Source: Octopus sinensis
Taxonomy: Eukaryota
Length of the DNA stretch: 64,000 nt
Assembly (NCBI RefSeq): GCF_006345805.1
Contig: NC_043001.1
Span: forward strand, 70,804,001 to 70,868,000
Direction of reading: 5' to 3'
Part shown: piece by piece, positions 4,250-55,910 of the stretch
Layout: each line of letters opens with the position of its first letter
Numbering within the stretch: position 1 is the stretch's first letter
Notes under the pieces: model-generated
What the model saw: the letters and a program-made list of their open reading frames with translations, nothing else
Database searches by the model: none
What the model was told of the DNA's origin: nothing
Program-made: the position numbers and the translations under genes

Positions 4250-4860
4250 TTGATATAGGATAAAATTTTTTTCGGAAAAAATTTTTATCAATGGCCAGCA
4301 TATCAAAAAAATGCCTTTAAAGGTAAAGTTTATACATAATTTACAAGATAAGGGCAGATGAAAAATTCTAATGCCAGATACGCCGAAACAAAAAAATTTG
4401 TCGATAACCATTAAATGTATGCGTCTCGAAACAAACCGATAGAAATCTCTAAAAAAATTCGTTATTACCCTATTGGTCCAATTTCCGGGGTTAATTCACA
4501 AGAAATTTCCCCTCTTCAGCGGCACATACGCGAGATATAAATGAAATACTTCTTCATACCCACGGAAAAAGCAAGCACCAAGTCCCACGCAGACATAAGT
4601 ACCCCAAATATATCCAAAATAGAATAAGTATAGTGGGTATGAATAAGTATTTCATTTATATATCGCGTATGTGCCGCTGAAGAGGGGAAAATTTATTGTG
4701 AATTAACCCCGAAATTGGACCAATAGGGTAATAACGAATTTTTTTAGAGATTTCTATAGGTTTGTTTCGAGACGCATAAATTTAATGGTTATCAACAAAT
4801 TTTTTGTTTCGGCGTATCTGGCATTATAATTTTTCTTCTGCCCTTATCTTGTAAATTATA
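4250..4860. mobile_element. Foldback element B with hammerhead motif, inserted in a (TA)n tract
   Basis: Near-identical inverted arms ~4335-4563 / 4633-4860 with a ~70-bp spacer; (TA)n on both sides. Confidence 0.8.
4672..4730 (+). ncRNA. Minimal hammerhead ribozyme motif (mirror copy on - strand at ~4466-4524)
   Basis: CTGAAGA-GGGG..CCCC-GAAA-TTGGACCAA-TA; stem I weak. The mirror copy has an extra G before GAAA. Confidence 0.65.
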
Positions 4861-6404
4861 TATATATATATATTATATATATATATATATATATATATAT
4901 ATATATATATATAAGTACAGGAGACCACAAATAAACGTAGAACACAACGAGAAACGAAAACATAAAAACAAACAAGGAAACATACTTTTTTTAACAACGA
5001 AAAAACAGAGTACAAGACAAACAATACAAGGAATATACCCCTTCGTCAGCTGCCCCTGGTTCTACTCAATGCGTGTTTCGAAGGTAAGGGCTTCTTTCCT
5101 TTTTTACCCCTCTGCAAAAGAAGTTTATTTAATTCATTTTGCAGGAAGGACTGCTTCGGCCGGATCGTGTTCTGCACTTACCTTCGAAACACGTATTGAG
5201 TCGAACCAGGGGCAGCTGATGAAGGGGAATATTCCTTGTATGGTTTGTCTTGTACTCTATTTTTTCGTTGTTAAAAAAAGTCCGTTTCCTTGTTTGTTTT
5301 TATGTTTTCGTTTTTCGTGTTCTACGTTTATTTGTGGTGTCCTGTACTCATATATATATATATATATATATATATATATATATATATATATATATATATG
5401 CATGTATATATACATATAGATGTAGGTATGTACATATATGTATGTATGTATGCATATGTTTTATTTGTTAAATTGTTATTATATGACTGAGCGCCTCGCA
5501 TCGTTTCTTATCCTCTAAGTACGTTTATATATATATATATATATATATATATATATATATATATGTGTGTGGTGTGTGTGTGTGTGTGTGTGTGTGTCTA
5601 CGTGTGTATATATGCACATACATTGTGTGTGCGTATGTGTGTGTATGTGTGTGTGTATGTGTGTGTGTAAACATGATCCCATCTGTGAGTACTGAATTGA
5701 TGACCTCACCACACAGGTCAACCTTTGACAAGAACGCAAGTATACTGACCGTTGCTATATTTCCCATGTGGTAATTCTTGATTGACTTAAATGTCTCCAT
5801 CCGACTATTCTCAATTAGTATTAATCTCATTTTTTTAAATTTTTAATTTTATATATTTATTTTTTATAGGTTTCATTTACTTTTTTCTCTTCTCCCTCCC
5901 TTTCTTCGCCTCCATTCTTCCTTCGTTTTGTTGTTATGGTTGTTGTTGTTGTTGTGGTTGTGGTTTTTGTTGTTGTTGTTGTGGTTGTGGTTGTTGTTGT
6001 GGTTGATCTTCGAAATTTTTATTGCTTGATTTCATATTCTATTTTATTTTTTTATTATATATTTTTTATGCTCTTTCATCTTTCCTGTCTATATATTTTT
6101 TGCATATATACTTGTAAGAAAAACTTTTTGCCATTTAAGCAACCTGTAAAACATGCAGTTTTCAGCTTGAAACTCACTGTAAACGTTATTATTAAGATTG
6201 AAATAAAAATTATTCCCTCAAAAATGCCACCTCTACTCGTTCGTTCAAATACACACACACACTTATACATTTATATATATATATATACATGCATATATGT
6301 ATTATATAAGTATACATTAAAGATTACACTCAGCTTATTTCCAAGAATTAAAGTTTCCTTGCTATATACTAATATCTACGCTGTCAGAAACTCAGTAAAG
6401 AAAT

Positions 6405-6645
6405 AAATTATTCATTCCTTTATTGCCCACAGGGGGATAAACATAGAAGGGTCAAACAAGGACAGACAAATGGAATAAGTCAATTACATCAACTCCAGTG
6501 CATAACTGGTACTCATTTAATCTACATCGAAAGTAAGAAAGACAAAGGCCACCTCGGCAAAATTTGAACTGAGAACGTAACGCCACACGGCATGCCTCTA
6601 GGCAATTCCCCCGGCGTGCTAACTATTCTACCAACTCGCCGCCAT
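6405..6645 (-). mobile_element. tRNA-derived SINE (octopus-type)
   Basis: Diverged match to the copies at 27464 and 30037 (..AACTGGTAC..AAATTTGAACT..GCTAAC..CTCGCCGCC). Confidence 0.8.
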
Positions 6646-7039
6646 AAAGAAACAGCATATTGCAAGCGCTAAATACGAAATAATTTTACATGCCGATTGT
6701 TCTTTTACATTGTTTCCAGTAGTAAAACATAATCATTGAGAAATTAATTCGTTTTCTCATAGAACAATTTAATTATTGCTCTCTCTTATTTTCATATTAG
6801 GGAGGAAAATATATAAAATATATTTCGTTTCTTTCTTTTCTGAAAAAAATTTTCATTAACAAGAATTCAATTCTTTTATATTGTGAATACTTTTAACATT
6901 TAATATGCTATGATATTTCTTTACCTCTTCTGTGGTTTCTTATAATCTACTAATGTGTCTAAGAATTTTTCAGCATTGAGTAACTGGATAAAAGACATTG
7001 TGTATTAATGAAATCATTAAAATACTCATGTAAGAATCG

Positions 7040-54022: not shown

Positions 54023-55444
54023 TATATATAAATATATAAACTGAGAATGTGTGTCTGTCTGTGTGTTTCCCTAAAACTTGAGAACTGCACAACAAATTTC
54101 ATTACTTAGGGTCCATGTAGTTTCATGGGAAAAAATGTTCAACTTCTTGCCTAGTCTGAGCCCATAGCAATATTATATCTTCTCCACTATTTCAGTATTA
54201 CGTGTTAAAAGTGAAACAAAAACATTTCTCTATTTTATGTTAGATGCTTTCACTTTAACAATAAAAATAATAATAACAATTGAATTATATGTAGTAAGTA
54301 ATAATTAAAATCAAACTAAAGTATAATATAATCGAAACATAACAAAAGTAAAAATAGCAATTGGTATAAAATTCCATCAATGATTTGAACTTGAATATGT
54401 GGTTTCACATGAATGGGAATAAATTAAAAATAAAATTAGCGTGCAGAAATGGAATAGTCCTGATGGACTGTTATACATAAAGGACTATACCTTCAACTGC
54501 GTACTGCTTTTTGATTGTTATTATTATTATTACCGTTTAACTATTGTTATCACGTTTGTTGGTTCCTCGTAAGGGAAACGTTGTTGTGTTGCATTCGTTA
54601 AATAATTGTAAACTTTAACCCTCCCCCTTTGGGAGAAGGAGATTTGGTTATTGTTTAAAAATTGAATTGTGTCCCTGTTTGGGGAAATTGGCAATATTTT
54701 CACCATTAACACGGAAGCATTTTTGTTAGAATGCCTTCGATAGAAGAAAGTCCAAAAATGAATTTCGCTGCAGCCGTCGGCGGGCGTGAACTCATTAAAA
54801 TTAAAATGGAAGATATACAAATCTATTTCGGATTGATCACCGACAAAGACGATGAATCTAGGATAACACCACCAAACGAAATAAAAAATTAAATTAAAGA
54901 AAAGACTATTGTCTATAAAGTATACAATGTAGAGAATAAAAAGATTTGAACACCTTGAGGAAAGCACCATCGAAAAGTGTCTTGGTGCGACTATGAAAGA
55001 TATCTAACCAGAGGCGGTAAATTCGCCACAATAGAAGCAAGCTTCGAGTCAACGGAGCATGCAAGGGAGTACTCGACTCGAACCTTGCAAAGTGGAAATA
55101 TTTTATTTTCACCTTTATATCTGGGACGTAGGACGGCCCGGATAAAAATTTAAAATGTCCCCCTAGAAGTAGAGGTAGGCTGGATTGTTGCCACACTTCT
55201 ATAAAAGAGGAAGGACAAGATACAATTGATCGAAATTGCAAGAGACGGGCCTACAAGTCCAATCTGTTATATATTTTGAGTATTGTTATCACTAGCGATA
55301 TCAAGATATAACTTTGTATTTTGAATTTTATGTGTAGATGTATATATATAGATGTACATGTAATATGTACACACACATATATATATATACACATATATAC
55401 ATGCACTAGCACTATGACCCGGCAACGACGGGTCATAATGCTAG
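54023..55444 (+). mobile_element. Non-autonomous Helitron-like element
   Basis: 5' TATATAAACTGAGAATGTGTGTCTGTCTGTGTG resembles the 5' end of the 8778-10562 element; 3' hairpin TATGACCCG-gcaacga-CGGGTCATA followed by CTAG|T at 55441-55444. Confidence 0.7.
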
Positions 55445-55763
55445 TACATATATATATATGTATATATAAATTGACAGAATGAGATAAAAATCAAAGGCTA
55501 TGAAAGATTTCAGAACCTTGGATTTTTATCTCATTCTGTAAATTTTTTTAATATATATATTGAATGCTGATATATGACCTACTCATTCGCACAATCACCG
55601 AACCTGGAGCTTAAGTATAGTCTGTCCATAGCACTTACTGAGTATTACCTGGCACCTTTGGGTCTTCTTGACCGCATTACTTCCCATAACCTCAATATAC
55701 ATATATATATATATAAATAAATATATATATATATATATATATATATAATAAATATATATAATA

Positions 55764-55910
55764 TTATTAGAGACAAAACCACTATTTTGCAAAACAAACA
55801 AGGAAAGACTTAATCAATACATAAAATTTTAATAAATAGTAAAAAAACCGCCACTACAATTGTTTCTTGTCTTGATCGACAATCTTCAGGTGGACTTCCA
55901 ATAAGTCAGG
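55764..55910 (-). mobile_element. Short family D-like element at (TA)n
   Basis: Terminus ATTAGAGACAAAACCACTATT resembles 14779; contains an intact hammerhead. Confidence 0.65.
55851..55893 (-). ncRNA. Intact minimal type I hammerhead ribozyme
   Basis: CCAC-CTGAAGA-TTGTC gatcaa GACAA-GAAA-CAATTG-TA-GTGG: perfect stems I and II, full core, GUA cleavage site. Confidence 0.85.

Follow-up and report, generated by a model that had tools for sequence, protein, structure and literature searches.

A 64,000-nt stretch of the Octopus sinensis genome (contig NC_043001.1, positions 70,804,001 to 70,868,000 of the forward strand; hereafter the window) carries a series of hammerhead ribozyme motifs in which the insert between the GAAA of the core and the T of the cleavage site, forming helix III, is a short palindrome. 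The palindrome changes from one family of motifs to another, which raises the question of whether it works as a dimerization code limiting activation to partners of the same subfamily, as an earlier note on this DNA had suggested. We consider it likely that the palindromic helix III of the eight families represented here brings two copies of one element together in a strand-swapped double hammerhead, and that the palindrome is drifting and is not a selected code. The underlying covariation is real and well supported, and it belongs to a known kind: the signature already published for double hammerheads of Penelope-like elements. Overall, the finding is mostly ordinary; a code is possible and unsupported.

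Hammerhead motifs of the window and their families

The window is microsatellite-rich (~33% GC; host genome 2.72 Gb). All eight inserts listed in the earlier note are present between GAAA and T, at 11 sites, and its span of 4715..55862 begins and ends with the first bases of the first and the last insert. Its statement that each hammerhead has a different palindrome holds for the eight families and fails for the 11 motifs, since three site pairs are inverted duplicates of single insertions, leaving eight independent elements. The eight inserts are self-complementary as claimed, except for the unpaired centre of TTGGACCAA. The sites are given below, with the G of GAAA as the site position.

4671..4731, plus strand: F1 type I hammerhead, GAAA at 4711, insert TTGGACCAA at 4715-4723; first helix I pair mutated
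4465..4525, minus strand: F1 inverted duplicate, GAAA at 4485, insert TTGGACCAA; helix I mutation as at 4711
4391-4563 and 4633-4805: arms of the F1 inverted duplicate
8274..8318, minus strand: F2 hammerhead, GAAA at 8291, insert CCATGG; CCGATGA core variant, helices I and II decayed
15932..16038, plus strand: F3 hammerhead, GAAA at 16021, insert CGTACG; 76-nt helix II insert, helix I broken
14928..15035 (span approximate), minus strand: F3 inverted duplicate, GAAA at 14945, insert CGTACG; core C3 changed
26524..26570, minus strand: F4 hammerhead, GAAA at 26543, insert CATGCGTG with G-U; intact, CCGATGA core, 6-bp helix I
26689..26735, plus strand: F4 inverted 5'-truncated duplicate, GAAA at 26716, insert CATGCGTG
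32847..32970, minus strand: F5 hammerhead, GAAA at 32864, insert CGCGCG; 93-nt helix II insert, helix I decayed
38892..38936, minus strand: F6 hammerhead, GAAA at 38909, insert CCGCGG; U3-A8 core TTGATAA, CCGG copies in the family
42192..42236, minus strand: F7 hammerhead, GAAA at 42209, insert TCGCGA; cut site UG here, UA in the consensus
55849..55895, minus strand: F8 hammerhead, GAAA at 55866, insert CAATTG; intact, very young family

A strict scan was passed by 3/11 window sites (26716+, 26543- and 55866-, the sign giving the strand), and only these look intact. The others failed because of a broken helix I (4711, 4485, 8291, 32864, 16021), the core change at 14945, UG at the cut site of 42209, or the 3-bp helix I at 38909, which is a trait of family F6. 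The Rfam hammerhead models gave no matches in the window at gathering score.

DNA searches with each window element returned 741-2341 first-look candidates, of which 40 were scored; 30 loci, ranked by likeness to the query, were aligned per family. Each window insert proved to be the majority sequence over the 30 genomic loci of its dispersed family, and in all eight alignments it is embedded in a type I hammerhead that includes both helix I and helix II. The core CUGANGA...GAAA...UH with a C3-G8 or U3-A8 pair is present in all eight family consensus sequences; helices I and II pair, the motif being open at helix I, with compensatory changes between sister families. The F2 consensus has a helix II mismatch and failed the automatic scan. 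Homologous pairs are F2 with F7 and F3 with F5, and F8 copies are 99% identical.

The insert is kept, out of 29 copies, in 28 for F1, 21 for F2, 12 for F3, 26 for F4, 10 for F5, 10 for F6, 11 for F7 and 29 for F8, the losses being mostly CpG decay at flank rates. Per-copy conservation was dropped as a sign of selection, because the CpG decay of the palindrome matches that of the flanks (0.21 vs 0.22 in F7; 0.10 vs 0.10 in F6) and the loci were ranked by query likeness.

Several core and helix II variants recur among these families and the further ones described below (c and s numbers). A C at position 4 (CCGANGA) is the family consensus in F2, F4, c67a, c86, c137 and c210, and the U3-A8 core in F6, c36 and s290. 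Helix II is extended in a large number of families by an AT-rich insert of 50-93 nt with covarying closing stems (window 15932-16038, 32847-32970 and 53570-53659; c54, c83, c136, c175, c210, c223, c234, c257), which would escape short-loop descriptors.

Covariation of the inserts in a palindrome-blind scan

A descriptor built from the core, helix II, GAAA, UH and a helix I of 4 bp or more, and blind to helix III, found 35 matches in 1.2 Mb of evenly spaced genome, compared with none in the reversed and 3 in the locally shuffled control. Strict palindromes filled the insert position in 21/35 matches (25/35 allowing G-U) and in 0/3 control matches. For clustering, ~0.8 Mb of family loci were added (~2 Mb in total); relaxed candidates formed 346 multi-locus clusters, 36 of them with a hammerhead consensus. 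After merging, splitting and dropping three clusters, the final set comprised 28 families: 19 blind-found ones and nine window families or subfamilies. The dropped clusters (c102, c129, c252) are probable false positives with weak helix I and one of three inner pairs paired. The consensus inserts TCATGA and CCCGG turned out to be hybrids from merged clusters, which were split, and matches from a CGCGCG pattern search assuming a short helix II were excluded as other, palindrome-selected elements.

The innermost pairs of the insert would in a monomer close a loop of under 3 bases and are impossible within a single copy. These pairs are complementary in 33/33 cases in the 19 blind-found families, 31 of them Watson-Crick, against a chance of 0.26-0.39 per pair. 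The count is 34/36 with the three dropped clusters included, and 44/53 at individual unbiased sites. The observation that the sequence varies while self-complementarity is kept, originally made on the window inserts, extends to families found irrespective of the palindrome. An alignment of ten six-base inserts, six of them taken from the earlier note, has 40/40 cells paired with 14 double changes; this pairing was matched by 0/500 shuffles, and slid controls gave 15-37%. Compensation is also seen between homologous inserts (CCATGG/TCGCGA, CGTACG/CGCGCG, CAATTG/CGATCG and TTGGACCAA/TCGGTCCGA). On the sequence evidence, this covariation supports the view that the source elements were selected for the ability of two hammerheads to pair. 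The suggestion in the earlier note that covariation indicates selection for function is thus borne out as compensatory pairing, already published for Penelope-like hammerheads in passages of PMC4209133 and PMC6765202.

A proposed strand-swapped double hammerhead

In the window families the monomer hairpin of helix III is unfavourable (+1.3 to +4.3 kcal/mol), whereas the homoduplex reaches -11.5 to -19.2 kcal/mol, initiation cost excluded. Pairing of two palindromes sets A15.1 of one copy opposite U16.1 of the other, and therefore helix I also has to form between copies, a dimer of the kind drawn in Fig. 1A of PMC4209133. In the proposed mechanism, copies A and B lie head to tail in one tandem transcript and would pair through their palindromes; helix I would be built twice, each time from the 5' arm of one copy and the 3' arm of its partner, and either core would cleave the copy opposite. 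Both partners would come from one element and so match by construction, and any palindrome folding well in its context would suffice. The palindrome likely drifts by compensatory change.

Folding was assessed with a nearest-neighbour model, which has no tertiary energy. The native F4 tandem at locus L114, a 364-nt head-to-tail repeat outside the window, folds as a swapped dimer (A15.1-U16.1 probability 0.83, swapped helix I 0.96-0.97, own helix I 0.0), while a single F4 copy shows swapped-dimer pairing of 0.0. Placing a foreign insert in one copy of this tandem reduced both swapped A15.1-U16.1 pairs from 0.83 to at most 0.19 in 10/10 swaps, and mismatched palindromes are accordingly predicted by the model to prevent the full dimer. 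The same foreign palindrome in both F4 copies brought the dimer back in only 2/10 cases, hinting, within the limits of the model, that palindromes must suit their own context. L114 also contains, ~150-330 nt before the first F4 motif, a hammerhead-like remnant with a long helix II and the insert CAATTG.

Insertion starts were considered as a possible footprint of cleavage; across the eight families 4 lie within 3 bases of the cut site, with no pile-up.

Identity of the elements

The elements are likely Penelope-like 3' ends and short non-autonomous derivatives of these, an assignment best shown for F5 and inferred for the others. A GIY-YIG-like frame lies upstream on the same strand in 9/30 F5 loci, 791-843 nt away where measured. 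Scattered 5' starts are seen among copies. Of the 240 loci, 169 are solo; an inverted copy accompanies the motif in 62 and a direct copy in 14, the count of 14 comprising one partial duplicate as well as two loci that were counted twice. Passages of PMC8557442 describe Penelope-like elements as leaving truncated copies that have an inverted copy next to them. Direct units measure 315-465 nt in two-copy tandems (F1, F2, F4, F6, F7) and 1248 nt for F3; no long tandem arrays were seen in the 3-kb loci. An inverted partner stands 84-197 nt away in 21/30 F8 loci (L221-L250; in the window 55760-55909), and a direct partner in 0/30; transcripts of these loci would therefore form hairpins, not dimers. 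Most genomic copies are solo or inverted and decayed, and are likely inactive.

A conserved block of ~40-50 nt, starting ~55 nt past the cut site, is common to four families and is possibly a reverse transcriptase signal:

8130-8400 (F2), 26437-26840 (F4), 38710-38985 (F6) and 42075-42310 (F7): window regions with the conserved block

Is the palindrome a family code?

A selected self-recognition code would mean pressure on each family to adopt a palindrome unused by its co-active relatives, with RNAs of its own family alone activating it. No proposal of such a code was found in the literature searched, although Lunse 2017 may bear on the point. Tabulated over the 28 families in the sampled ~2 Mb, 20 inserts are in use, and they are not unique to a family: CAATTG, CGATCG, CAGCTG, CG, CCGG and CTCAGAG each occur in at least two (for CATATG and CCATGG, sharing depends on small families that are themselves uncertain). 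Because palindromes are taken up again by other families, a code dedicated to one family is unlikely. Eight families drawn randomly would all have distinct inserts with P=0.50, so the pattern that drew attention to the window is unremarkable, and the C-starting six-mers, with 8 distinct among 13 vs 9.1 expected at random, likewise show diversity not above random draws. Palindrome and helix I are both common to F8 and its single relatives at 93% and 79% identity; F8 and s219 are compatible in both, F8 and c83a in the palindrome only. The families c67a and c67b (79% identity) differ at the unpaired centre only and stay compatible.

Conservation within subfamilies holds in part. The insert is constant at the consensus level in 7/8 window families; the exception is F6, and the F2/F7 group has a recurrent seven-base form (first 100 of 227 matches). 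In F6, on a tree built without the palindrome columns, the forms CCGCGG and CCGG switch between six and four bases 5 times, at least 3 of these forced by strong branches. The two forms are nevertheless clustered on the tree (5 changes vs about 10 when shuffled), as a code would have it.

Across 13 sister pairs the change per site is 0.20 in helix I, 0.35 in helix II, 0.28 in helix III and 0.19 downstream, and helix III is no faster than helix I (p=0.23) or helix II. When 378 family pairs are compared at a cut of 2 kcal/mol, 13 are blocked by helix I alone, 3 by helix III alone and 1 by neither, with a median penalty of 14.9 for helix I vs 10.8 for helix III; the consensus is uncertain for two c210 rows under 2 kcal/mol. 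Partner choice is, moreover, unneeded where tandem partners are identical by origin. In the one element tested in passages of PMC11167929, cleavage depended on a protein of the element itself, and insertion in vitro proceeded without cleavage, ribozyme mutants having no effect on it.

A number of observations weigh against the reading preferred here, that of a drifting palindrome in a double hammerhead of Penelope-like origin. Some of them are what a code would lead one to expect. The palindrome difference breaks pairing in 10/13 sister pairs, and helix III changes slightly faster than the downstream sequence (p=0.07). The helix III penalty is at least 5.9 kcal/mol in 28/28 window-family pairs, while that of helix I is below 5 in 4; in F2/F7, F3/F5, F6a/F6b and c234/c257 helix I is compatible or nearly so (penalty 0-4.2) and helix III is mismatched (6.1-13.2). 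The loss of the modelled F4 dimer in every one-copy swap points the same way. Others concern the dimer, the counts or the element. The full dimer fold appears in 1/4 tandems with two readable motifs; the three partial ones, which are more decayed, give 0.13 (F6b), 0.27 (F1) and 0.87 for the palindrome with 0.04 for helix I (F2). The families are interrelated, so that covariation and family counts lack independence, and the small families c136, c210, c211 and c223, with 2-5 copies, have an uncertain consensus. Within 1.5 kb a GIY-YIG-like frame was found at one locus each for F2, F4 and F6 and at none for F1, F3, F7 and F8. This frame matches an Atlas cluster at 0.96, only 23% of the members of which carry PF01541, and Pfam left the endonuclease piece unrecognised.

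On balance, we regard a selected code as improbable. The same low likelihood attaches to its extended form, in which helix III and helix I make up a two-part RNA password and co-active sister families are driven apart by kin recognition. The idea that palindromes limit partners survives as a prediction that mismatch blocks the dimer, and is unsupported as a claim of a unique or selected code, given the reuse of palindromes, the variation in F6, the rates and helix I. A preference for self is physically likely, selection for it is not indicated, and it is probably a by-product; in the proposed mechanism the failure of mismatched pairs would itself arise incidentally and largely duplicate what helix I already does. 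Selected kin recognition, if true, would give the ribozymes a role, and mobile elements would be competing in a new way; the present data do not require it. The exchange of helix I between partners must enter any specificity argument.

Other explanations of the insert

The inserts could also be ordinary monomer hairpin stems, their self-complementarity reflecting a helix III folded on itself. Inserts of 9-12 bases can indeed form hairpins of 3-5 bp (+1.3 kcal/mol for F1, -0.7 for c54 and -3.3 for c203), the fold of a lone F1 motif has helix I at 0.92 and A15.1-U16.1 at 0.15, and many invertebrate retrozyme hammerheads cleave as monomers according to passages of PMC7229834. Since the innermost pairs are always complementary in the blind-found families despite loops under 3 bases, and a stem is impossible in two- and four-base inserts, we find this account very hard to sustain. 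Least plausible of all is binding of the palindromic DNA by a protein dimer, for instance the endonuclease of the element or a factor of the host. Six-base palindromes are indeed frequent among the inserts, and several fit CANNTG. However, G-U pairs (F4, c54) and unpaired centres occur in family consensus sequences, an insert can have anything from 2 to 12 bases, its sequence varies freely between sister families, and its place inside the ribozyme core, between A15.1 and U16.1, is constant.

Comparison with known systems

The closest counterpart of the double hammerhead favoured here is found in the Penelope-like pseudo-long terminal repeats (pLTRs), as far as passages of PMC4209133 (Cervera and de la Pena 2014) describe them. 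Their hammerheads are of type I with a palindromic 15.2-16.2 pair and loop 3 and a U3-A8 core variant, form many covarying and extremely variable families per genome, and cleave weakly as dimers. The octopus motifs share the type, the palindromic positions, the U3-A8 core, the many variable families and, in several families, an extra base after A9; in both, motifs are mostly single and dispersed, with opposite-strand pairs 100-700 bp apart, and the dimer was proposed there. They differ in that inserts here have 2-12 bases, mostly 6, vs 0-2 there, and in having some helix II inserts of 50-90 bases and a recurrent C4 core variant. The passages of that paper drawn on here contain no test of family specificity. 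A palindromic stem III loop acting as a dimer in tandem is attributed to Lunse 2017 in passages of PMC6765202 and PMC6466107, and the variants of Lunse, Weinberg and Breaker resemble ours in their very short palindromic stem III and in dimer cleavage, which for ours is predicted, the tandem arrangement being the presumed source of the partner.

Retrozymes offer a second comparison (parts of PMC7229834, PMC6155905, PMC7761336 and bioRxiv 10.64898/2026.07.22.740005). The non-LTR type, characterized by tandem units of 150-450 bp with a hammerhead in each and by expression as circular RNA, is proposed to derive from Penelope-like pLTRs (passages of PMC7229834 and of the same preprint). As in these, F1, F2, F4, F6 and F7 occur as units of 315-465 nt arranged head to tail, each with a single type I hammerhead; unlike in them, tandems here are rare (14/240 loci) and short. 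In avocado sunblotch viroid and newt satellite RNA (Forster 1988, as cited in passages of PMC4209133 and PMC6155905), two unstable motifs merge their helices III into one active double structure, whereas here the motifs are encoded by many chromosomal retroelement families.

The 28 families from about 2 Mb provide a rich natural set of compensatory palindromes backing the published double-hammerhead model, as well as ready-made orthogonal ribozyme pairs for bench work.

Further features of the window

Three hammerhead remnants were absent from the earlier note:

34721..34765, plus strand: remnant with insert CCGG, GAAA at 34750, U3-A8 core TTGACAA
46265..46306, plus strand: decayed c86 remnant, GAAA at 46288; CTCWGAG in the family, CACTGAG here
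53570..53659, plus strand: c83b remnant with insert CGATCG, GAAA at 53642; core decayed

The insert CCGG at 34750+ is that of subfamily F6b and of family c36. Altogether the window holds 14 remnants of hammerhead families, where the unbiased sample has 5.0 per 64 kb; the window count is inflated by the eight queries derived from it. At 55856, the U16.1 position of the F8 motif, a plus-strand A>G change was present in two RNA-like runs and absent from DNA-like runs; it did not recur in three further RNA-like runs at a stricter likeness cut-off. An inverted repeat at 4947-5318, with 145-nt arms that are 93% complementary and no hammerhead found in it, is probably another truncated element. Broken reading frames at 62261-63866 resemble a non-LTR reverse transcriptase, and the fragments at 19945-20388 and 8921-9262 resemble a mariner-type transposase and a Helitron/Pif1-type helicase, respectively.

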